Under the pieces are notes generated by a model that did not search any database, had not been told where the DNA came from, and saw only the letters and a list, made by a program, of their open reading frames with translations. Both the position numbers and the translations under genes were made by a program. Source: an uncultured Christensenella sp. (GTDB taxonomy: Bacteria; Bacillota; Clostridia; Christensenellales; UBA3700). From it: a DNA stretch of 64,000 bases. The stretch is from positions 15,914-79,913 of the forward strand of contig CASFWW010000020.1 in NCBI GenBank assembly GCA_949298505.1. The letters run 5' to 3'. The number at the start of each line of letters is the position of its first letter. Position 1 is the first letter of the stretch. Below are positions 1-10,480 of this stretch, piece after piece.

Positions 1-1804
1 CGGGAGACGCGTTTTCAGCAGAGTCCGTCGCCTCCGCAGTCTGAGTCTGACCGCTTTCTGCGGCTTGCGTCTGCTCGCTTTCTGCGGCTTGAGCCTCGTT
101 TTGCGCGCCCTCCTGAGGAGCGGTATTTTGCGCGCCGTCCGCGGTCGCCGCGTTGTCTGCGCCTGCGCCTTCAGAAGGACTTTCAGTCGCGTCTGCCGCG
201 CCCTTTCCGCCGCCTCTCAGCGCTTCAGACATCGGCATTACGGAGAGGTCCTCGACTTCTCCGAGATCCTCCTCCGGAGCGCGTTCTTCTGTTTCCGAAG
301 CGATGGTTTCCTTCTTCTCGCGCATTTCTTTTTCAAGTTTTTCAAGGCGCTTTATGTCGCGTTCACGCTGTTTTTCAAGCGATTCTCTCTCTTTTTCCGC
401 CATCTTTTCTTTCTTGGCGAGAGAACGTTCGAGCGCCTGTTTTTCCTTTTCCATTTCTTTGAGCATTCTTTCCTGCTCTATCTCTTTCTGGCGGTATCTG
501 ATCTGAGCGACGTCCGACTTTTTCTTTGCGCGCAAAGTGCTCTCGTTGATCAGCACGCGGTCGATCGCCTTGTTGATACGCGCGATCTGCGCCCTGTCCA
601 CCTTGCCGTCCGTCTGCTGGAACAGATTCCTGAGTTCCGCCACACCGAATTCGTCGGGGAGTTCTTCCTCCTCTTCCTCTTTCTCCTCTTCTTTGCTTTC
701 TTCCTGTTCCTCTGTTTCTTCCGGAGAAGGCGTTTCGACTGTTTCGGGAGCCGGTTCTTTTCCCTCTCCCTCTTTATCTCCTTCTTTCTCGCCTTCTTTT
801 TCGCCCTCTTTCTCCTTGTCTTCTTCTTTTTCCTTTTCAGGCTCTTCCTCTTCAGTGATATTGGATTCGTCGAAGAACAGAGAATCGTCCACCTTGGATT
901 TTACGAGCCCTTCCATCAGCGAATTGCAGATGAACATCATGTCTCCGACGGCAGTTTCCACACCTTCGTCGACAGCCATTTTTTCACTGGAATTTTCCAC
1001 CGAAAAGCCCATCTTGGAATAGCTCTCAATGAACTGCCACAGCACGAGCGCCTTTTTGAAGTCGGGGTTTTTCAGGATCACGTTGGTACGCGTGATAGGC
1101 GGTCTGACCGGCGCGCTGTTGACCATCTGCTTGGCGAACGGCGAAGACAGAAAGTCTGAGATTATGCGCTGAAGTTTGGACACTCTCTCCACGATCTTCA
1201 GATCTGCTCCCTGAATTTCCTCCTCTACGTCGGACGGCACAGAGCCGATCAGCTCCAGATTGTAAAACACGCGCGTCTTGCCCATATAGAAGTTGGCGTC
1301 CACGTCCAGCTCCAGGATATTGTCGTTGATGTACGCCTTTTTTATTGCGTCCATACGGCGCGAAATGAAGTTGGACAAGTTCTTGAGCAGAGTGTATATA
1401 AAGCGGTTTTCGTATATCTCGTAACTTTCCTCTTTTGTCGTATTCAGAATCCTGTTGGGTGTGACGTTGCCCTCTTTGTCCACGCTCGCTATCATGTTGG
1501 TATGCTGAGCGAGGTGCTTTACCGATTCCGTCGAAATGGCGCGCGCAAGCGAAATATCGACGATATCTTCTTCGATAACGATAAATTTCCTCGGATTTCT
1601 GACGATGTTGTCAAGGCTGGTTATGCACGATTCGATCATCTCGATCCAGTCTGTCTCAAACTGCTTGGTCCTGCTCTTTTTCGCGAGTCTGAACTGCGGT
1701 TTGGACGCGCGCAGTCTGCGCCTGAACGTCTGATAAAACTCGTCCGAACGCAACAGCGCGTTTATTCTTTCGACGTAACCGTCAAATTTCTCTCTGTCGT
1801 CCAT
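1..1804 (-). CDS. McrC-like protein (McrC/DUF2357-type N-terminal domain followed by poly-Glu and coiled-coil region); partial, 3' end lies beyond the left window edge
   Basis: Absent from the ORF track because it has no stop in the window. I read the minus frame by hand (codons on plus positions = 2 mod 3) from ATG 1804-1802 down to position 2 and found no in-phase TTA/CTA/TCA. RBS GGAGAAAGG lies 3 nt before the ATG, 22 nt after the upstream stop. The product starts MDDREKFDGYVERINALLRSDEF. At aa ~126-141, EESYEIYENRFIYTLL resembles the McrC N-domain motif (E. coli McrC NEDTLANRIIKSTL) at a similar distance from the N-terminus. From aa ~330 it is EEEEPEKEKEEDKEKEGEKEGEKEG, then KEIEQERMLKEMEKEKQALERSLAKKEK. 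The coding call is firm; the family call is motif-level only. Confidence 0.6.
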   Translation of the reverse strand, partial: MDDREKFDGYVERINALLRSDEFYQTFRRRLRASKPQFRLAKKSRTKQFETDWIEMIESCITSLDNIVRNPRKFIVIEEDIVDISLARAISTESVKHLAQHTNMIASVDKEGNVTPNRILNTTKEESYEIYENRFIYTLLKNLSNFISRRMDAIKKAYINDNILELDVDANFYMGKTRVFYNLELIGSVPSDVEEEIQGADLKIVERVSKLQRIISDFLSSPFAKQMVNSAPVRPPITRTNVILKNPDFKKALVLWQFIESYSKMGFSVENSSEKMAVDEGVETAVGDMMFICNSLMEGLVKSKVDDSLFFDESNITEEEEPEKEKEEDKEKEGEKEGEKEGDKEGEGKEPAPETVETPSPEETEEQEESKEEEKEEEEEELPDEFGVAELRNLFQQTDGKVDRAQIARINKAIDRVLINESTLRAKKKSDVAQIRYRQKEIEQERMLKEMEKEKQALERSLAKKEKMAEKERESLEKQRERDIKRLEKLEKEMREKKETIASETEERAPEEDLGEVEDLSVMPMSEALRGGGKGAADATESPSEGAGADNAATADGAQNTAPQEGAQNEAQAAESEQTQAAESGQTQTAEATDSAENASP

Positions 1805-1826: not shown

Positions 1827-3170
1827 TTATTCTGAAGCCTTTTTCCCTGTCCCGGTTTTCGCTTTCGCCGCTGAAGTCGCGGGTTTGCCCGCCGCCGGTT
1901 TTGTTTCAGTCTTCTTTGCCGCAGTCTTCTTTTCTGCCGTCTTACCGGTAGCCGCGCTCTTTTTTGCGGGTTTCTTTTCTGCCGTCTTATCGGTAGTCGC
2001 GCTCTTTTTTACGGTCTTCTTTGCCGCCGGTTTTTTCACTTTTTCAGCCGGTTTTTCCTCCGCCTTTTCTTCAGACGCCTCTGCGTTTTCCGCTTCGGGC
2101 GCGGACTGTTCCTCGGGTACGCCTGAAATTTCTTCAGCAGGCGCAGTCCCCTCTGCGGAAACAGGCTCTTCTGTGGGCGCGACCACTTCAATGGTCACGG
2201 ATTCTGTGCTCTCCGTTTCTTCAACTACGTCGCCGTTTTGCGGTTCTTCCGCGCTCTGAACGGCATTTTCAGCCGGTTCAGCCTCTTTTTTCTCATCGGG
2301 GTTCAGCGCCTCTGCGGGCGTGCCTGTCTCATTTTCAGAAACCTGCTCTGCACTCACGTCCGGCTGTGCCGTAACGGGCGCGGTTTCAGTTGTTGTTCCG
2401 GGCGCGGTTTCCTGCGCGGTTTCCGGTTTTTCGCTTGCCTGCTGTGCGTTCTGAGAACGCAGATATTCCTCGATCGCACGGCGTTTTATCTCCTCTTCGT
2501 CAAGCGGAGTGACCCCGGAAGCAGACTCCGCGGCAAGTTGTTCTCTCTGCTTTTTCAGCTTCGCTTCTATTATTATGCGCACTACGAGGTATGCGTTGTA
2601 AAGAAGCAGAAGTATCAGCGGGAGCATTATCACAAGAAAGAAATGAGTGGGATCCTGAAGCCAGAACACGGCTTTGCCCACGCCGGCAAGCTTGCCGAGA
2701 TAAATGCCCTGAATGTCGCCGGAATACAACGTTTTCGTGATTCCCGAAGTTTCGGCGTCGCCCATGGTCTCTATTACCTTGACGACCGAGCCGTTTGTCA
2801 GCTCTGTCTCTTCCACGGAAACGACGCGGTGAGTCACGAACTGAAGATCTGCCCCGACGTAATCGAGGTATGTGACGATATCTCCCACTTTGAGTTCTGC
2901 TTTATCCTTTTCGGTAGCCTTCTTGACGATTATCAGATCTCCGGCAGCAAAGCTGTCGTCTTTATCGCCGTTCATACTGTCAGTCAGGACGGGCATCAGC
3001 CTGATCGACGAATCGCCGAAATCCGTGTTGCTTTCATAGCCTGTCGACAACAGGATGGATATTGAAAAAGCGATTGCGACGACCACGATCGCGATCTGAA
3101 GCACGATCAGAGCGATGTTGACCGCCTTTTTTGTTTTGCTTGCCTTGGCATCGGTATTTTTTTTAGACAT
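1827..3170 (-). CDS. SipW-type (S26B) signal peptidase I with a long low-complexity C-terminal tail
   Basis: The track ORF is 1827..3200 (non-ATG start); the first in-frame ATG is at 3170 (MSKKNTDAK). It has an N-terminal TM (AVNIALIVLQIAIVVVAIAFSISILL). Peptidase boxes are VLTDSM (Ser), GDLIIVKK, FVTHRVV (His) and TMGDAE (Asp). A second TM (FFLVIMLPLILLLLYNAYLVV) follows, as in SipW. Then comes a ~230-aa tail: an acidic E/P/A/T-rich part followed by Lys/Ala repeats (KPAEKVKKPAAKKTVKKSATTDKTAEKKPAKKSAATGKTAEKKTAAKK). Confidence 0.75.
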   Translation of the reverse strand: MSKKNTDAKASKTKKAVNIALIVLQIAIVVVAIAFSISILLSTGYESNTDFGDSSIRLMPVLTDSMNGDKDDSFAAGDLIIVKKATEKDKAELKVGDIVTYLDYVGADLQFVTHRVVSVEETELTNGSVVKVIETMGDAETSGITKTLYSGDIQGIYLGKLAGVGKAVFWLQDPTHFFLVIMLPLILLLLYNAYLVVRIIIEAKLKKQREQLAAESASGVTPLDEEEIKRRAIEEYLRSQNAQQASEKPETAQETAPGTTTETAPVTAQPDVSAEQVSENETGTPAEALNPDEKKEAEPAENAVQSAEEPQNGDVVEETESTESVTIEVVAPTEEPVSAEGTAPAEEISGVPEEQSAPEAENAEASEEKAEEKPAEKVKKPAAKKTVKKSATTDKTAEKKPAKKSAATGKTAEKKTAAKKTETKPAAGKPATSAAKAKTGTGKKASE

Positions 3171-3243
3171 ATTTCTTCCTTTTTCGGCATAAGCCGACAA
3201 ATTTTTCTGTTTTACACCGCCGGAACGCGCGTTTTAACGCATA

Positions 3244-4779
3244 TCAGAACAGTTTCTTGAGTCTTTGTAGGTACTCTTTGCTCTCGCCCATATTTTCTTC
3301 TCCGAACAGTTCCGAGAGGTAATCGCAAAGGCCGTCGATCTCGTCGCGGATGAAGCCGAGGTTGAGTGACTCGAACTTTCTCAGGATCTTGTTGCACAGC
3401 ACGTAGTCTATGCCGTCGATCTCGGTGCCGCCGCAGGCGACGTAAGACGGAACGAACTCCTTAAGCTGTTTGACGATACGGTTACCGAACGCAAGCCTGA
3501 AGTGTTCGATGACGTAATCGTCGAGGGTATTTATCTTGTCGATGACTTCCTGAGAGACCTTGTGCTCTTCCTGCGCGATCTTGAACATATTCTCGACGTG
3601 CTTGAACGAGACGTACAGCTTGTCTGTATCCGGCGCGTCGAAAGGCACGCCTTTTGTATTTATGTTGATCGGGATGGCACGGTCGTAGACCTTATCCGAA
3701 ATGGCGAACGTCGAGTCGTCGTTGTTCGCGGTGCCGATGAACCACATGTTCTGAGGGAGAGTGAATCTGCCCTTCACAACGTGTTTGGGGTCGTTCGGCC
3801 AGCCGCTGGGAACGAGGTCGACGATCCAGTTGTCGCGTGACGGCATTTCGAGAATTGAAAGCATTTCTGCGAAATAGTACTCGACACGCGCGATGTTCAT
3901 TTCGTCGAGGACGGTTATGTAGATGTTTTCGTTCCAGGTCGCTTCGTACATCTTCTTGAGAACCTCGGTCTCGTTGAAGCGCTTGGTAAATTCGTTGAAG
4001 TAACCGAAAAGCTCGGTACGGTCACGCCAGGACGGCTGAACTGAAGCGATCGTCGCCGGGTTGTCCAGGAACTGACCGGTAGCGTAAGCAAGCGAGGTCT
4101 TACCTGTACCTGAAATACCTTGCAGGATGAGGAGTCTCGTGGTGGACATTCCCGCCCAGAACAGACGGATGATGCGCGGCTCGTAGTAAAGGCGGAGCCT
4201 GCTTGCCGCGAAATTGCGGAAGCGGTCGCATATCTCAGCGAGCGTGATCTCGTTGTCATAAGCAGGGGGCGTGTAGTTTTCATAGATCTGATCGACTTCA
4301 GTGAGCTTGAAGAAGCGGCTTTCGCCCTCTTTGAGTTTTTTCTCGTCGGCGTTTTCTTCTTCTCCCTCTTCAGTCTCCAGTCCTTCAAGGAACGCGTCGC
4401 CTTCCGCGCCGGTAACGCGCATGCGGAGGATCCTGTCCTTTTCCTGAGTGAGCTTGAGTATCTGTTTTTTAAGATTGTGGATCTCGTCAAGCAGATCCTG
4501 GTTGATGACCGGCTTTTTGAAGCGTTTCACGAGGCGGATCGTAAACCAGACGATCACCCATATCAACGCGGCGAGGATGGCGATGACAAGAATGGCGATG
4601 AGCACTGCGAGTATCCATTCGCCTGCGCCCCATCCGTTGGCGTTGACCCAGAAAGCGTCGTAGTATGCCGGGAAATTGAACATCTGAAAGATGCCGCCGA
4701 AAATGCCGACGAAAATCTGAGAGATGCCTCCCCACAGTACGCCCAGAAACGCTTTGATGAAATTTAACATGTTGTCCAT
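3244..4779 (-). CDS. Membrane-anchored McrB-like AAA+ GTPase
   Basis: Two predicted N-terminal TM helices (FLGVLWGGISQIFVGIFGGIF; WILAVLIAILVIAILAALIWVIVWFTI) are followed by RLVKRFKK and a short coiled coil. The AAA+ core has Walker A GISGTGKTS, Walker B VLDEMNIARVEYYFAE, and the McrB-type NxxD signature FIGTANNDDSTFAISDKVYDRA (compare McrB TMNTADRS). The start is 15 nt after the upstream stop. Confidence 0.8.
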   Translation of the reverse strand: MDNMLNFIKAFLGVLWGGISQIFVGIFGGIFQMFNFPAYYDAFWVNANGWGAGEWILAVLIAILVIAILAALIWVIVWFTIRLVKRFKKPVINQDLLDEIHNLKKQILKLTQEKDRILRMRVTGAEGDAFLEGLETEEGEEENADEKKLKEGESRFFKLTEVDQIYENYTPPAYDNEITLAEICDRFRNFAASRLRLYYEPRIIRLFWAGMSTTRLLILQGISGTGKTSLAYATGQFLDNPATIASVQPSWRDRTELFGYFNEFTKRFNETEVLKKMYEATWNENIYITVLDEMNIARVEYYFAEMLSILEMPSRDNWIVDLVPSGWPNDPKHVVKGRFTLPQNMWFIGTANNDDSTFAISDKVYDRAIPININTKGVPFDAPDTDKLYVSFKHVENMFKIAQEEHKVSQEVIDKINTLDDYVIEHFRLAFGNRIVKQLKEFVPSYVACGGTEIDGIDYVLCNKILRKFESLNLGFIRDEIDGLCDYLSELFGEENMGESKEYLQRLKKLF

Positions 4780-4794
4780 AGACTTCCCCTCATC

Positions 4795-5625
4795 TTACGG
4801 TTTTATCGCGTCCACCTGAGTGACGCGGAAGTTGTATTCAAAATTGACTTTTGCGCCTATTATTGCGTCTATGCAATCGCTGTCAGACCCTTCAAGCCAG
4901 ATCAGCACGGTATACTTCTTTATCTCGTCCACGGCGAGAAACACGTCGGGCGACTCAAAAACGGTGATGTTGTTGTCCTGAGGTTCGTCAGTCGAAAACG
5001 GCGTGGTGACGTTGGTGCCGAGAAGTTCGTCAAGCTTACTACTCCCGAGCGGCAAAGGCTGTTGAGTCTCCTTGTCGTCAGAGTCGTAAGCGATATATTC
5101 GGGAGTGCCGTCGGAGCGGGAGACCGCATAGCAGGTCGCCTTTTCTTCATCCTCAACGATCACGATCCTGACCGCTCTTTCAATGTCTTTAGACACATAA
5201 TTGAGCACTATGGAATTTTTGAAAAGGATGTCGCTGTCGCCGACGTTTTTCAGGAAAAAGCTGAAAGCGATATAGTTGTCTCCGTGATGATCGCCCTCTT
5301 TGCCGAGCACTTCGTCTTTATAGATCCAGTCATACGTGATGTTGGAGATCTCGTCCGGTCCGTCCATTCTGAGCACGGTCGCGGGAGAAGAAAAATCTGC
5401 CGTTTTGCAGACGGAGATGTCGCCGACGTTGCTCTTGTCAACGACCACTCTCATGCTGTTTGCGTCAATGAAAGCGATCGTGCCCCAGGTGGCGCCGGTG
5501 AGCAGAAGCGCGATGATCAGAAAAATGATTATGACGGTCGTGGCGGTACGCCTTCTGCTTGCCGCACGTATCTTCTGATTTTTGATGATCTCGTCCTGTT
5601 TAGGCTTTGTAAACTCTCTTCCCAT
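4795..5625 (-). CDS. TasA/TapA-like membrane or secreted protein with SipW-type signal anchor
   Basis: It has a basic N-terminus, then one TM ending LLLTGATWGTIAFIDANS, close to the TasA signal end GGGTWAAFND. The C-terminal VLIWLEGSDSDC..GAKVNFEYNF parallels CVLYIWYDGTVV..GTVTFNLSF of the 5901..6848 protein, a paralogy seen by eye. AGGA lies 7 nt upstream of the ATG. Confidence 0.6.
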   Translation of the reverse strand: MGREFTKPKQDEIIKNQKIRAASRRRTATTVIIIFLIIALLLTGATWGTIAFIDANSMRVVVDKSNVGDISVCKTADFSSPATVLRMDGPDEISNITYDWIYKDEVLGKEGDHHGDNYIAFSFFLKNVGDSDILFKNSIVLNYVSKDIERAVRIVIVEDEEKATCYAVSRSDGTPEYIAYDSDDKETQQPLPLGSSKLDELLGTNVTTPFSTDEPQDNNITVFESPDVFLAVDEIKKYTVLIWLEGSDSDCIDAIIGAKVNFEYNFRVTQVDAIKP

Positions 5626-5720: not shown

Positions 5721-5749
5721 ATTATATTATATGATTTTAGCCGTGTCAA
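5721..5749 (-). promoter_or_regulatory. Sigma-A-type promoter for the 5625..<1 operon
   Basis: On the minus strand: TTGACA (5749-5744), a 17-nt spacer, then TATAAT (5726-5721). This is a perfect consensus, about 95 nt upstream of ATG 5625. Confidence 0.7.
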
Positions 5750-5758
5750 TAGCAAAAG

Positions 5759-5860
5759 TAAAAAAATAAGCGCAAAAATTGCGCTGAAAACGGGAATTTT
5801 TTCCAAAAAGCGCCTTTTAAGGCGCTCAAAAACCCCACCCCGGTTTCGGGGTGAGGTTTG
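5759..5860 (-). terminator. Three tandem rho-independent terminators after the TasA-like gene
   Basis: Read on the minus strand directly after the stop at 5901, there are three stem-loops, each followed by a T-run: CCTCACCCCG-AAAC-CGGGGTGGGG+TTTTT; GAGCGCC-TTAAAA-GGCGC+TTTTT; CAGCGCAA-TTTT-TGCGC+TTATTTTTTT. Confidence 0.75.
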
Positions 5861-5900: not shown

Positions 5901-6848
5901 TCAGTCTGATGCTTCAAGATTGGTACCTGCAAAGGACAGATTGAACGTAACGGTACCGCTGGAAGTCGTATTGTTTACCACAGTGCCGTCATACCAGATG
6001 TAAAGCACACAATCATACTGTCTAGAAGATGTAGCCTTGAAGGTGATCGTGCTTGCAACGCTGGTGTTGGTGGTCGAGATCGTGGAATTGTCAGCTACGG
6101 CAACGATCTCTGTTGCTGTCGCCACATTGTCAGCTCCGGTCGCCGTGATGCCTGCGTCTACATAGTCTGCGGTGCCGATAGTTCCTTGAGCAGGCGTTTT
6201 GCTGTCAATCAGATACTTATAATTCGTTGCAAAAACAAAGTCCTGAGCGGCTACACCAGCAGCACCGTTGCCTTTGCCGATCATAACGAATCTGAATGCT
6301 TTTGCCGCGTCAAGGTCTGCACGGGACGGACCTGCGGGAACGCTTACCGTAGCGGTGATGGTCACCTGCGTTTTGTCATAGGTGGGTGCGAGCAGGAATC
6401 TGACAGCAACAGGATGCAGACCGAAACCGTCGCTAGGAACGGTAGCGCTTCCGCTTGTTTGCTGATTATCTGCATAAAGGAACGTTACGCTGGGAAGACC
6501 GTTGGTACCGTCAAATTCAGTGCCGGCTATCTTATTTTCCGGAAGCAACGGATTGTAACCGGTTACCGCGCCCGGAGTACCGGAAATCGCCTTGCCTACG
6601 TTAGTCGTCCATTCGTAATCGCCCGAATAAGTTCCCATAGCCCATTCGGCAACCGGGGTTGCCTCATAGTTTTTCTCAACCGTGCTCCACCTGTAAACGT
6701 CCGCACCTGAACCGCTTGTCGCAACTGCAAATTCATTGGTGATATTCGCAGCCTGAGACGTCGAGAACCATGCGAAAGTCGCTGTGGTCAACGCAACTAC
6801 GATCACGAGCACGGTAGCTATTGTTGTAATTACCAAACTCTTTTTCAT
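5901..6848 (-). CDS. TasA/CalY-like secreted protein with SipW-cognate-type signal peptide
   Basis: The N-terminus MKKSLVITTIATVLVIVVALTTATFAWFSTSQ ends like SipW-dependent signals (CalY TFAYFSD, TasA TWAAFND). The mature part is T/S/G/A/V-rich. AAGGAG lies upstream of the ATG. Confidence 0.65.
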   Translation of the reverse strand: MKKSLVITTIATVLVIVVALTTATFAWFSTSQAANITNEFAVATSGSGADVYRWSTVEKNYEATPVAEWAMGTYSGDYEWTTNVGKAISGTPGAVTGYNPLLPENKIAGTEFDGTNGLPSVTFLYADNQQTSGSATVPSDGFGLHPVAVRFLLAPTYDKTQVTITATVSVPAGPSRADLDAAKAFRFVMIGKGNGAAGVAAQDFVFATNYKYLIDSKTPAQGTIGTADYVDAGITATGADNVATATEIVAVADNSTISTTNTSVASTITFKATSSRQYDCVLYIWYDGTVVNNTTSSGTVTFNLSFAGTNLEASD

Positions 6849-6928: not shown

Positions 6929-7618
6929 TTATTGATCGGCTTTTCCCAGCAGGGTCTCAAGCTTCTTTTTGGGTTTGGCGAACGCACTGCCGCTGAACAC
7001 CATGACCCCCTCTTTCCCGAACAGATCAACGTTGTTTTTGTTGACGACGTTGCCGAGAACGAGTTTTATGCCCTTCTGACCCGCGAGGTTCGCGAAGATC
7101 GAAAGAAGGGAAAAATTGCTCTGATTGTAATAGCGGTAGTCAAGCAGAAAATATTCAGGCACATACTTTGCTATTACGTCCATCGGAGCGCGCTCGATGC
7201 CCTCTATCATGATATGAGCTCCGCGCTTGGTCAAGAAGTTCAGACCCAGGCGGCTGTTCCTTTCGCCGAAGGCTTCAAGCTGAAAGATGTCAAAACACAG
7301 CACCAGGTTGTCTTTCAGAAGACCGGCAAGCCTGTGCACGTTGCCCTCTGCCAACAGGCGACTGCTCACCTTGTAGATGAACTTCGCGGCAGGATATTTT
7401 TCAGAATCTTCTTCGAATTGTGTGAGAGCGAGGAAATTGAGAGTTTCGATGCGGGAACTCGTCTGCGCCGCCGGGACGTACTGCCACGGATATAAAACGC
7501 CGAGCACATCGTCTTCAAGAATCTGCCAGACTTCGATGAATTCCGTCTTGCCTTCCCCGTCAAAGTAGGGCATGTAGCAATAAGAAACGGGTTTCTTGAC
7601 GGTAGCCGCTTTTCCCAT
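6929..7618 (-). CDS. Degenerate EAL-like domain protein
   Basis: The track ORF runs to 7747, but a promoter lies inside that extension. ATG 7618 (MGKAATVKK) follows AGGAGG. The spacing of blocks fits an EAL fold with the catalytic residues replaced. FIEVWQIL stands for EAL. GAHIMIEGIE..YFLLDYRYY stands for G..ialDDFGtG....lKiD. KLVLGNVVNKNN..VFSGSAFAKP stands for vvAEGVEt....QGy.fskP. Confidence 0.5.
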   Translation of the reverse strand: MGKAATVKKPVSYCYMPYFDGEGKTEFIEVWQILEDDVLGVLYPWQYVPAAQTSSRIETLNFLALTQFEEDSEKYPAAKFIYKVSSRLLAEGNVHRLAGLLKDNLVLCFDIFQLEAFGERNSRLGLNFLTKRGAHIMIEGIERAPMDVIAKYVPEYFLLDYRYYNQSNFSLLSIFANLAGQKGIKLVLGNVVNKNNVDLFGKEGVMVFSGSAFAKPKKKLETLLGKADQ

Positions 7619-7672
7619 ACGGCAAATTTGCCTCCTTACCACACAACGCGAGAAAACTCGCCTTATACTGTT

Positions 7673-7701
7673 ATGATATACGCATCGATAAAGGTTGTCA
7701 A
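7673..7701 (-). promoter_or_regulatory. Putative promoter of the EAL-like gene
   Basis: On the minus strand: TTGACA (7701-7696), 17 nt, then TATCAT (7678-7673), about 55 nt upstream of ATG 7618. Confidence 0.55.
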
Positions 7702-8187
7702 TACCTTTTTTCATTTTTTTCTTGACGAAAATGAGTTTTTTACGCAAAAAACGTGCTTTTACGACGTTTCCCGGCTGAAAAATTTTATGTTTGCTTTAAG
7801 GTAAAATCTTGACACGTATTGAGTTATCGCCACTCAAGGCGCGAAAAATCCGTGCACGAAGCAAAAATTTTTTCGGCGCGGTTTGATCTCGTGCAAAAAA
7901 ATGCCGTGACCGCCTGTCAAAAACGGTCTGACCGTCCGTCAAGAGTCCGTCACAGCCGCCCGGCGTGAAAATTCTCTCATGCCTTGCCTCTCCCCTTTTG
8001 ACCTGAATAGGCTACACGTATGTGTATTATTTATATTTTCTTCGTGCGCGAATGTAAAATTTTTAACGCGTTTTATCTTTTTGTATCCATAAATATTTCG
8101 TTGCGAATTTGCGCTTTTTTGCACAAAGCAACGTTTTGAACCGCTTTTTTATGGTTATAATGGTATATTTTGGGTTTTATTTTTGTC

Positions 8188-8216: not shown

Positions 8217-8257
8217 TAAACTACAAAAAAATGCATAACTTAGGAGGTTATCAAATT

Positions 8258-10480
8258 ATGACAAAGAAACATATTTGGGCTAAGTTGCTCGTTGTTGCTT
8301 TGATCGTTGCAATGGTATGTGCCTTCTTTATCGGTTGTAACAGGGACAAGACCCCTTCTGACACCGATGATGACGACAAGACCTGCACGTCTCACGTTGA
8401 CGCAAACAAAGACGGCAAGTGCGACAACTGCGGCGCTACAATGTCTAGCAAACCCGATGTTGACACCGCCGCCATCACCGATCTCCTCGGAGTCGTTGAC
8501 GACGCGATCGCTCAGTTGGATATCGACAACGTAGGCAACATCGGTACCGACGCTTACATCGAGCTTTCTATGGTCCAGGGCGACGAGACCCACGACATCA
8601 GAATCGACCTCGATCTTTCTCTTGACCTGCTCAATGACGCTGAATCCGTGTACACCAACAACGCTTTCGGTTTCTCCGTAACCGTTGACGGAACGAGAGA
8701 GTTCGGCCTCTGGTACGTCGATGCCGGCTCTGAAACCCCCGAAGGCGAGCCTGTGGACAACTACTTCTACCTCTCCTCCGGCGGCCAGAACCTCAGGATC
8801 AACGCTCCTTCAGTCGCTTCCATCCTGGAAAGATACGAAGTCAACGCTGACGTTGAAGTCGGCAGCAAGCTCGAAGGCGTTTCCGTCACCGAACTCGCCG
8901 GCAGCTATGTCGGCATGATCGCAGGTTTCGTCACCATCGACCATGAGACCGACGGCAACAAGGAGATCTTCTCCCTCAACCTGAGAGAGCTGTTCAACCC
9001 GCAGGGTCTGCTCTACGGCGCAGTTGACTCTCTCCTCTTCGGCGAAGAAGCAACCATCCTCGACCTCTCTTCCATCCTCAGCGAGATGAACGTTGCGATC
9101 AGCTCCTCTTCCGCGCTGTACGACATCCTGCCCGACATTGATCTGCAGGTGATCGGCAACTACGACTCTTCCAAGAACTTTGAGAGCATTTCTCTCGGCC
9201 TCGCAGTCGGCGAAAAGGCTGACGGCATCACCATCCCGGCAGTAACAGGCGACGGCTACAACCTCGTTGAAACCGTTCCCGCTACCGACCTCTCCGCGAC
9301 GCTCGGCTACAAGTTCTTCTCCAGCAACTACGACGCATACGACAACGTTTCCGAAGCTCAGAACGCGACTATCGCAGACGTCGAAAACTGGACCGACGTC
9401 GGCCTGCTCAACTTCGCTCTCGAAGCTCAGGTCTCCCTCGGCAAAACCGAAGCTACCAAAAAGACCTATGACGTTGAACTCTCCGCAGACATCGACCTTT
9501 CCGCTGTAGCTGACGCTACTTTCGTAAAGACGCTGTACTACACCGAAAACGGCGTTGCGACGTCCAAAGACTGGTTCTACCTCAGAGGCGTAGGTCCCTT
9601 CGCAGAAGACACCGACCTCGACGTTATCGACACCCTGCTCCCCGCTATCAACAGCCTCTACATCAAGATGGTAAACGTTGAAGATCCCGAAGATATCCTT
9701 CTTATCAACCTTGACGAGAAGATCACGATGGACGAAACCGGCCTCGGTTTTGAGACCGGCAGAATGACGATCAACCTCGCGGCTGTCACCGGCATTCTCG
9801 AGACCTTCGGTCTGACCGATTCCATCCCTGAAAACGTCTCTGACATGATCAGCAAACTGAACGGTTCGCTCGGCATGGCTACGGTCCTTGAAGCTATCAA
9901 GCCCGTTCTTTCCAGCTTCATTTACACCAAGGTTCCTGCCGGCGCCACCACGACCGCTCCCGCAAGCGCTACGAGCAACGAGCTGGCAATGGCAGAGGGT
10001 GAAGAATCTACCGAACCCAGCGTTGTCGAAATCATCACCGAAGTCATCAACAAAGTCATGGCTTGCGTGTCCATTGACACCGCAACTTCCAGCATCACCG
10101 CTGAAGGTTCCGGCGCTGATTACACCGTCGGCGGCGCAGAACTCACCTTCGACATCACCGCTTCTCTGCTCAAGGGCGAGAACAATGCTGTAAACGGCGT
10201 TAAAGTTGCTGTTGACGAATTCGTCTCTGACTACAACAATGGCGAAGTTGTCACTTCTGTAAACGGTAGCATCCAGCTCGGCGGCGGAGAACTGTTCAAG
10301 GCTGAAGTTGCCGTTGATCAGAACAAGGCAGAAGTTGACACGCTCGACATCTACATCGCGCTCACTCTGGAAAAGATCGGCTACGGTTGTGCTACAACTT
10401 CCCCCGTCGTTCTCGGCGCTGATCAGAACCCCACCGGCTCCATCTTCGTTGAAGGAGCAGGCTGGTCCATCAGCAAGTAA
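8258..10480 (+). CDS. Large lipoprotein of unknown function
   Basis: ATG 8258 is 9 nt after AGGAGG; the track start 8231 is upstream of the RBS. The signal MTKKHIWAKLLVVALIVAMVCAFFIGC carries a lipobox. A Cys/His/Asp motif CTSHVDANKDGKCDNCG follows. The rest is acidic and D/E/T/S-rich. A terminator follows the gene. Confidence 0.85.
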   Translation: MTKKHIWAKLLVVALIVAMVCAFFIGCNRDKTPSDTDDDDKTCTSHVDANKDGKCDNCGATMSSKPDVDTAAITDLLGVVDDAIAQLDIDNVGNIGTDAYIELSMVQGDETHDIRIDLDLSLDLLNDAESVYTNNAFGFSVTVDGTREFGLWYVDAGSETPEGEPVDNYFYLSSGGQNLRINAPSVASILERYEVNADVEVGSKLEGVSVTELAGSYVGMIAGFVTIDHETDGNKEIFSLNLRELFNPQGLLYGAVDSLLFGEEATILDLSSILSEMNVAISSSSALYDILPDIDLQVIGNYDSSKNFESISLGLAVGEKADGITIPAVTGDGYNLVETVPATDLSATLGYKFFSSNYDAYDNVSEAQNATIADVENWTDVGLLNFALEAQVSLGKTEATKKTYDVELSADIDLSAVADATFVKTLYYTENGVATSKDWFYLRGVGPFAEDTDLDVIDTLLPAINSLYIKMVNVEDPEDILLINLDEKITMDETGLGFETGRMTINLAAVTGILETFGLTDSIPENVSDMISKLNGSLGMATVLEAIKPVLSSFIYTKVPAGATTTAPASATSNELAMAEGEESTEPSVVEIITEVINKVMACVSIDTATSSITAEGSGADYTVGGAELTFDITASLLKGENNAVNGVKVAVDEFVSDYNNGEVVTSVNGSIQLGGGELFKAEVAVDQNKAEVDTLDIYIALTLEKIGYGCATTSPVVLGADQNPTGSIFVEGAGWSISK

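Follow-up and report, generated by a model that had tools for sequence, protein, structure and literature searches.

In this article, I discuss a McrB-like AAA+ NTPase, and the gene cluster that surrounds it, in 64,000 nucleotides of DNA from an uncultured Christensenella sp. (the whole stretch analysed, hereafter the window: GenBank assembly GCA_949298505.1, contig CASFWW010000020.1, positions 15,914 to 79,913 of the forward strand). The closest described system is CoCoPALM, a discovery made in 2024 by Bell et al. (eLife 2024, PMC11090510), who named it in two sentences and deferred its analysis; they described an N-terminus composed of a transmembrane (TM) segment and an FtsB-like coiled coil, an association with signal peptidases and coiled coils on both subunits, and they set apart one major branch of the McrB family by its NxD signature, after which E or another D usually stands. 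The supplementary text files of that article hold no CoCoPALM details, and a literature search found CoCoPALM mentioned nowhere else.

Judged by its sequence, the window system is a member of CoCoPALM, an architecture already named though experimentally uncharacterised, since all of the listed features were found here except FtsB homology: the McrB-like protein carries an NxD-type signature (here N-x-D-D), a TM and coiled-coil segment replaces the DNA-binding domain, the adjoining gene encodes a DUF2357 McrC homologue with a coiled coil, and genes of the signal peptidase family are tightly associated. To this description the present analysis adds that a second N-terminal helix is conserved though weakly hydrophobic, that each locus has two SipW paralogues with their catalytic residues intact, that neighbouring proteins bear TasA-type signal peptides, that an EAL-like gene heads the cluster, and that the McrB-like protein also occurs in variants with four TM segments (4-TM) or an extracellular domain. 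I put at roughly 0.55 the probability that the McrB-like protein serves as motor in a McrBC-derived machine that makes fibres in a SipW-dependent way, and the cluster as a whole appears to be a housekeeping-type surface-structure machine and not a restriction system.

The likeness to canonical McrBC (E. coli; PDB 6HZ4, 6UT6, 7VSR) lies in the AAA+ core with its Walker A and B motifs and signature Asn and Asp, and in a partner that carries the DUF2357/McrC N-domain, whereas just ~200 residues align (E ~1e-7), the McrB-like protein has a membrane anchor and no N-terminal DNA-binding domain, its signature reads N-x-D-[D/E], its partner has no PD-(D/E)xK nuclease, and the operon encodes secretion and putative fibre proteins, not DNA-acting ones. 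CoCoNuT (CnuB/CnuC), the sister clade within the NxD branch, shares the NxD[D/E] motif, coiled-coil fusions and McrC homologues that often lack an active nuclease (PMC11090510), and long relatives of 700-870 amino acids (aa) without TM segments occur among the nearest representatives of the McrB-like protein; yet CoCoNuTs are soluble, have long N-terminal coiled coils and always come with HEPN or other nucleases, whereas the window system is anchored by a TM segment and has signal peptidases, not nucleases, for neighbours. Similarly, the operons tapA-sipW-tasA of B. subtilis and sipW-bsaA of C. perfringens place a SipW-type peptidase beside secreted β-sandwich proteins, share the signal-peptide end T-[FWY]-A-[AWY]-F and have a major subunit that is separately transcribed or attenuated, but neither contains NTPase or McrBC-like genes, and the likeness of two window proteins, p276 and p315, to TasA is structural only, and weak. 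FtsH, in which an N-terminal membrane anchor precedes a cytoplasmic AAA+ ring, has the same anchor-then-ring layout and is an analogy only, as the McrB-like protein lacks a protease domain, belongs to a different AAA+ clade and showed no sequence relationship to FtsH in Pfam or PDB searches. One paper considered as a link between McrB and SipW/TasA (PMC11580942) was set aside, 'mcrBC' there being the E. coli DH10B genotype.

The McrB-like protein and its membrane anchor

The gene begins with ATG, 15 bp after the stop of the preceding gene (p276), and has a Shine-Dalgarno-like GAGGGGA upstream. By sequence comparison this open reading frame (ORF) is far beyond chance, because more than 8000 homologous clusters exist, their members being ~500 aa long and matched over their full length. 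Its parts, from the N-terminus onward, are as follows (A1 being the alignment of McrB-like proteins).

3244..4779, minus strand: McrB-like AAA+ NTPase, the CoCoPALM 'B' subunit, 511 aa (ORF, AAA_5 and McrB matches, homologues)
4681..4776, minus strand: helix 1 (aa 2-33), Gly/Phe-rich, marginally hydrophobic, conserved (Kyte-Doolittle (KD) hydrophobicity, A1, AlphaFold2)
4537..4617, minus strand: TM helix 2 (aa 55-81), secure membrane anchor (KD, homologues, AlphaFold2)
4513..4536, minus strand: RLVKRFKK basic cluster (aa 82-89; from the sequence, cluster kept in A1)
4414..4500, minus strand: helix with heptad-like spacing (aa 94-122), putative short coiled coil (low AlphaFold2 confidence; A1)
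4306..4413, minus strand: acidic, variable, disordered linker (aa 123-158; AlphaFold2, A1)
4093..4119, minus strand: Walker A, GISGTGKTS (aa 221-229), invariant in A1 and aligned with GPPGVGKTF of E. coli McrB
3895..3909, minus strand: Walker B, LDEMN (aa 291-295), from A1, aligned with IDEIN of E. coli McrB
3715..3726, minus strand: signature N352-N353-D354-D355, that is N-x-D-[D/E], sensor-1-like, invariant in A1

An earlier note on this DNA had read the protein as having a McrB-type core, and the assignment stands. When all PDB chains were searched with phmmer, E. coli McrB was the sole significant match (E<=1e-6), at 2e-7 with the single sequence and 7e-8 with a 21-sequence profile, and neither MoxR, RavA, NorQ, dynein nor any other AAA+ ATPase appeared in these sequence and profile searches at E<=10. 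The McrB model was also the sole match in NCBIfam (7.8e-8, aa 217-415, far below the equivalog cutoff), and the Pfam match to AAA_5 lay just at the cutoff (E 1.7e-4). Both Walker motifs are kept throughout A1, with D292, E293 and N295 of Walker B invariant and L291 and M294 nearly so. The note had allowed that the core might align better with another AAA_5 subgroup, such as MoxR- or dynein-related proteins; by sequence it does not, and a structure search, taken up below, returned matches too weak and generic to be informative.

The reading of the signature needs more revision, since NNDD (aa 352-355) had been taken for an NxxD-type motif that in McrB confers specificity for guanosine triphosphate (GTP). 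Across 150 cluster representatives (50% identity) it reads GT.N-x-D-[D/E]-ST, with N352 and D354 never replaced, N, K, H, T, R, Q, I or V at position 353 and either D or E at position 355, and it is better described as N-x-D-[D/E]; NNDD aligns gaplessly with NTAD of E. coli McrB (HMMER), so that deletion and substitution are not separable by sequence. The link to GTP specificity is outdated as well, as Niu et al. (2020) reported that mutating the McrB signature leaves nucleotide preference unchanged, that the motif has a catalytic, sensor-1-like part and is moved into a new position by McrC, and that recognition of guanine falls to elements lying immediately before the AAA+ core. The guanine loop of the E. 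coli protein, D176-L-F178, has R196-L197-Y198-Y199 as its aligned counterpart here, L197 and Y199 being invariant, and this alignment is compatible with GTP use, not proof of it; according to a 2026 preprint, some McrB homologues do not discriminate between nucleotides.

At the N-terminus, where the earlier note had placed a two-helix membrane anchor, one helix is certain and the other is not. In a KD scan with a 19-aa window, helix 2 (aa 55-82) reaches a maximum of 3.44, an unambiguous TM segment, and the maximum is at least 2.98 in all 118 close homologues; helix 1 (aa 6-34) reaches a marginal 1.71, with a median of 1.15 across the same homologues and values of 1.6 or more in only 21. The possibility, raised at the time, that no TM helices would be found is therefore set aside by the strong segment, and on hydrophobicity the second of the two helices alone is a secure TM helix, the first being either a weak TM helix (an N-in hairpin) or an interfacial or extracellular helix (N-out). 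The sequence of helix 1 is nevertheless kept as FxKxFLGV..G..IF.GIFGG..QMFNF..Y in A1, and the invariant residues of the N-terminal region are F7, F11, G18, Y39 and W55. AlphaFold2 places helices at aa 2-24, 26-33, 36-46 and 52-87, with a predicted local distance difference test score (pLDDT) of ~80.

All of the strings quoted in the earlier note were located, RLVKRFKK at aa 82-89 and DLLDEIHNLKKQILKLTQEKDRILRM at aa 95-120 in addition to NNDD. Because the basic cluster follows TM helix 2, the positive-inside rule suggests that the C-terminal ATPase faces the cytoplasm. The short coiled coil proposed after the cluster corresponds to a conserved helix with heptad-like spacing, still a putative coiled coil, in which D95, L96, E99, L103, E113, K114, R116, I117 and L118 are invariant in A1, and this is followed by a linker that is gapped and variable in A1 and has a pLDDT below 50 over aa 116-156. 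No DNA-binding family in Pfam matched aa 1-158. The position of the DNA reader of McrB is taken by a membrane anchor and a short conserved helix, as had been supposed, and the anchor implies, also as supposed, a different place of action, the membrane and not DNA.

The anchor varies among more distant relatives, some of which have two clearly hydrophobic segments and others four. A 4-TM variant of the McrB-like protein, ~540-680 aa long (P0289-P0366), is common, both in human-gut metagenomes and among the 150 nearest representatives at 50% identity, 41 of which have this form, and an architecture of this kind is not mentioned in the sections of Bell et al. used here (PMC11090510). A metagenome scan with a single 4-TM representative gave nothing and its repetition with an alignment gave matches; in the human-gut metagenome contigs so obtained (L086-L165), a SipW-like gene lies directly upstream of the 4-TM variant in 51 of 80 and a McrC-like gene was found downstream in 30 of 80. 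Furthermore, in a few relatives (P0246 and P0250) a signal peptide is followed by ~270 aa of extracellular domain, whose stalk is rich in Pro, Thr and Glu, and then by a single TM segment and the McrB-like core, which suggests that the extracytoplasmic side of these proteins can bear a real domain.

Partner, peptidase and candidate fibre genes

The remaining features of the cluster, in the order of their coordinates, are listed here (A2 and A5 being the alignments of McrC-like and p315 proteins).

2..1804, minus strand: McrC-like partner, 601 aa or more, truncated at the start of the window (translation, DUF2357, A2)
1827..3200, minus strand: SipW-type (endoplasmic reticulum/archaeal-type) signal peptidase I, 457 aa, with a K/A/E-rich C-terminal tail (NCBIfam, paralogues)
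4795..5625, minus strand: p276, N-terminal TM helix and β-sandwich, putative anchor or minor subunit (AlphaFold2, Foldseek, hhalign)
5721..5749, minus strand: sigma-70 consensus promoter-like site TTGACA-17-TATAAT, 12/12 match, ahead of p276-McrB-SipW-McrC
5769..5856, minus strand: tandem hairpin and T-run terminator-like elements, read from the sequence, after the p315 gene
5901..6848, minus strand: p315, putative secreted fibre subunit with a TasA/camelysin-type signal peptide (sequence, motif in loci, A5)
6929..7747, minus strand: EAL-like protein, 272 aa, TTG start, head of the cluster (sub-threshold Pfam EAL)

The DUF2357 domain plugs and activates the McrB ring in McrBC, and the McrC-like protein, which begins MDDREKF, carries this McrC N-terminal domain (Pfam, E 5.7e-11). 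Only the first ~270 aa are conserved among homologues (A2); beyond them lie an acidic low-complexity linker, the conserved short helix INKAIDRVL and a coiled coil rich in K and E whose length varies, and the complete homologues found on long contigs measure ~540 aa. Pfam and PDB searches gave no nuclease family or structure for this protein, A2 holds no conserved acidic/Lys triad past aa ~270, and the PDB profile search returned only coiled-coil proteins (Vipp1, ATP synthase b), that is, coiled-coil noise. Since the partner has no recognizable nuclease, the McrB-like/McrC-like pair is, on sequence grounds, not a restriction enzyme. The long plus-strand ORFs at 1-1160 and 1885-3065 (364, 275 and 161 aa), in which F, L, S and R abound, are artefacts that mirror the low-complexity, K/E/A-rich McrC-like and SipW-like coding regions of the minus strand.

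At least 569 species genomes carry a relative of the McrB-like protein in a scan of one genome per GTDB species, and the survey of gene neighbourhoods covers the best 80 loci among these carriers, with 58-97% identity among them, in which ORFs were called and searched with hidden Markov models built from the window proteins (60 loci having room downstream and 48 upstream; SipW-like genes were counted within 8 kb on the same strand, McrC-like genes within 3.5 kb downstream). These 80 belong to Christensenellales, Oscillospiraceae, Acutalibacteraceae, Faecousia, Ruminococcus sp. CAG:488 and unclassified Clostridia metagenome-assembled genomes (MAGs), and the window itself is ~97% identical to an uncultured Christensenella MAG. 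The McrC-like gene follows the McrB-like gene in 60/60 loci, a SipW-like gene is near in 79/80, with two or more copies in 44/80, and upstream genes of the p276/p315 type are present in 47/48. The genes usually run EAL - p276 - p315 - SipW1 - McrB - McrC - (p276 x3) - SipW2, the window's own clade having one SipW between McrB and McrC, and no fusion of SipW with McrB was seen among 270 family members. The flanking genes vary by lineage and are of housekeeping type, with a predicted leucyl-tRNA synthetase (read from the translation) beside the window's cluster and frr/uppS/cdsA/dxr or dprA/topA in other lineages; an origin in a prophage or defence island was considered and rejected in view of these flanks and of the cluster moving as a unit between chromosomal contexts. 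Some genomes may hold two CoCoPALM copies, since separate contigs of one Faecousia MAG (JAZMZW01; loci L046 and L061) each carry a cluster.

The peptidase of the window matches SipW (1.5e-12) and sigpep_I_arch (TIGR02228, 3.3e-10) in NCBIfam, both below the curated cutoffs, and the Ser (DSM), His (THR) and Gly-Asp boxes are kept in 55-59 of 59 SipW-like copies, so these SipW-type peptidases are apparently active. Its C-terminal ~220 aa (1827-2510, minus strand) form an acidic-then-basic low-complexity tail, KKPAAKKTVKKSATTDKTAEKKPAKK, after the second TM segment, with a weak histone-H1-like match (NCBIfam, 1.1e-4), and the length of relatives ranges from 264 to 480 aa.

Candidate substrates stand upstream. 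The p315 protein begins MKKSLVITTIATVLVIVVALTTATFAWFS, its signal peptide ends in ALTTATFAWFS, which fits the SipW-type end T-[FWY]-A-[AWY]-F-[STND], and a near-invariant N-terminus ALSTAT[FY]AW[FY][ST] recurs on p315-like proteins in 48/81 loci while their mature parts diverge. I take this N-terminus to be of the TasA/camelysin (CalY) SipW-substrate type. In TasA, the N-terminus left by removal of the signal peptide serves as the donor strand of the fibre (PMC9674648). The AlphaFold2 model of p276 (pLDDT 80.7) combines a TM helix with a β-sandwich, and a Foldseek search of 350k PDB chains placed the Pyrobaculum bundling pilus 7UEG (AbpA) at rank 2 and the TasA fibre 8AUR at rank 3. The p276 and p315 families are homologous to one another (hhalign 96.9%, E 1.5e-10) and share a C-terminal W-x-EG-x-D-x-DC; p276 has no canonical cleavage motif, only a loose variant, GATWGTIAF.

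The gaps along p276, McrB-like, SipW and McrC-like genes are 15, 43 and 22 bp, and together with the terminator-like elements and the promoter-like site these short gaps suggest that a putative major subunit (p315) is transcribed separately from a four-gene machinery operon. The EAL-like gene at the cluster head hints at a link to cyclic di-GMP (c-di-GMP), with a Pfam EAL match (E 1.4e-6) of 28.3 bits against a cutoff of 31.3 and homologues of 230-960 aa at the same position in 40 of the 48 loci with room. Divergent to the cluster and beside it, 8231-10480 (plus strand) encodes a protein of 749 aa with an N-terminal hydrophobic segment followed by Cys (CAFFIGCNRD) and no family match in Pfam or NCBIfam.

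Roles proposed for the motor

If the McrB-like protein is the motor of a fibre-building machine, its ATPase domains would form a hexamer on the cytoplasmic face, with the six anchors as tethers, the N-domain of the McrC-like partner would enter the ring and stimulate NTP hydrolysis as in McrBC, and the coiled coil of the partner might dimerise or connect to other parts. Hydrolysis would then be coupled through the anchor to SipW-dependent processing, anchoring or polymerisation of TasA-like subunits outside the cell, possibly under the control of c-di-GMP. A wider form of this proposal, which I offer only tentatively, is that the McrBC motor has been exapted into an NTP-driven device within the membrane for building, anchoring or regulating TasA-like, SipW-dependent surface fibres; this would be a so far unrecognised, energy-coupled class of Gram-positive pilus or fibre apparatus, core to gut Christensenellales and Oscillospirales and existing in 1-2-TM, 4-TM and extracellular-domain variants.

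Several points weigh against the motor of fibre biogenesis. The most serious weakness is that Bacillus needs no energy source for the extracellular polymerisation of its TasA-type fibres (PMC9674648), which leaves the need for a motor puzzling. The hexamer, the insertion of McrC and the nucleotide preference are modelled on E. coli and T. gammatolerans McrBC alone, and the link to a pilus or fibre is guilt by association. The p276 matches to 7UEG and 8AUR are weak (E ~2e-3, probability 0.84-0.85, TM-score 0.23-0.32), and neither p276 nor p315 had a sequence match in Pfam, NCBIfam or the PDB. Also, homology of the isolated N-terminal 130 or 80 aa to FtsB/DivIC was not detected in Pfam even at E<=10, McrB is not among the top 50 Foldseek matches of the McrB-like model (pLDDT 70.6), and the best PADLOC match of the core is a candidate defence family, PDC-M26A (2e-36).

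Because the assembly of TasA fibres in Bacillus costs no energy, a module for regulation or quality control is a serious rival, although I hold it to be unlikely. Here the NTPase ring, tethered to the membrane, would serve as a switch, or would pull out either the highly conserved signal peptides after cleavage or precursors still uncleaved, and would thereby gate SipW activity or fibre output on a cytoplasmic signal, such as c-di-GMP via the EAL-like protein. The retention of the EAL-like gene at the cluster head is consistent with this, as is the fact that McrC-like proteins are the GTPase activators of McrBC (PMC7680126), and conservation in p315-like proteins is far stronger in the signal peptide than in the mature part, which suggests that this TM segment is itself recognised by something. 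However, Pfam reveals no sensor domain on the McrB-like or McrC-like protein, the EAL match falls under the Pfam threshold, the pore of the ring is occupied by McrC in McrBC, contrary to the threading of a substrate, and the proposal is inferential throughout.

An anti-phage or anti-foreign-DNA defence of McrBC ancestry, working at the membrane, for example by abortive infection triggered at a surface or pilus receptor, is improbable. It would agree with descent from Type IV restriction, with the predicted defensive role of the sister CoCoNuT clade (PMC11090510) and with the PADLOC match of the core, but the lack of an effector, the fixed synteny and the high conservation make such a role unlikely: Pfam, NCBIfam, PADLOC and PDB searches gave no nuclease or recognisable effector in the McrC-like protein or the neighbours, gene order is fixed over at least 80 species with the identity given above holding across the orders Christensenellales and Oscillospirales, the flanks are neither defence islands nor mobile elements, and 0/3 scanned neighbours (p276, p315, SipW-like) match PADLOC. 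Least probable is that the protein is an AAA_5 chaperone of the MoxR/RavA/NorQ type, working in the maturation or insertion of a partner protein complex and resembling McrB only superficially, for although Foldseek was led by NorQ (7.4e-4) and RavA (9.8e-4) and the Pfam match is to the general AAA_5 family, these structural matches are weak (TM-score 0.2-0.3), mixed with NSF, Vps4, Lon and MCM and obtained with a model whose pLDDT is 70.6, the PDB and NCBIfam sequence searches point to McrB only, the obligatory neighbour is a DUF2357 protein and not the VWA partner typical of MoxR, and the sensor-1 position holds the McrB-family N-x-D-[D/E].

Implications for gut Clostridia

If the McrB-like protein is indeed the motor of a SipW-dependent fibre machine, then the McrBC motor and its activator would be re-usable for a cell-surface structure that is unrelated to nucleic acids, and an energy-dependent step would be added to the biogenesis of TasA-type fibres, which is now thought to be spontaneous. 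The system is abundant, given the species genomes and protein clusters counted above, and is highly conserved in gut Clostridia that are uncultured or poorly studied, such as Christensenellaceae. The anatomy of the operon also offers handles to researchers, including the two apparently active SipW paralogues, the near-invariant signal peptide, the membrane-anchored paralogue p276, the nuclease-less McrC-like protein and the EAL-like gene. The biology of CoCoPALM is potentially important, and surface fibres of this kind could shape adhesion, aggregation and host association in gut Clostridia.

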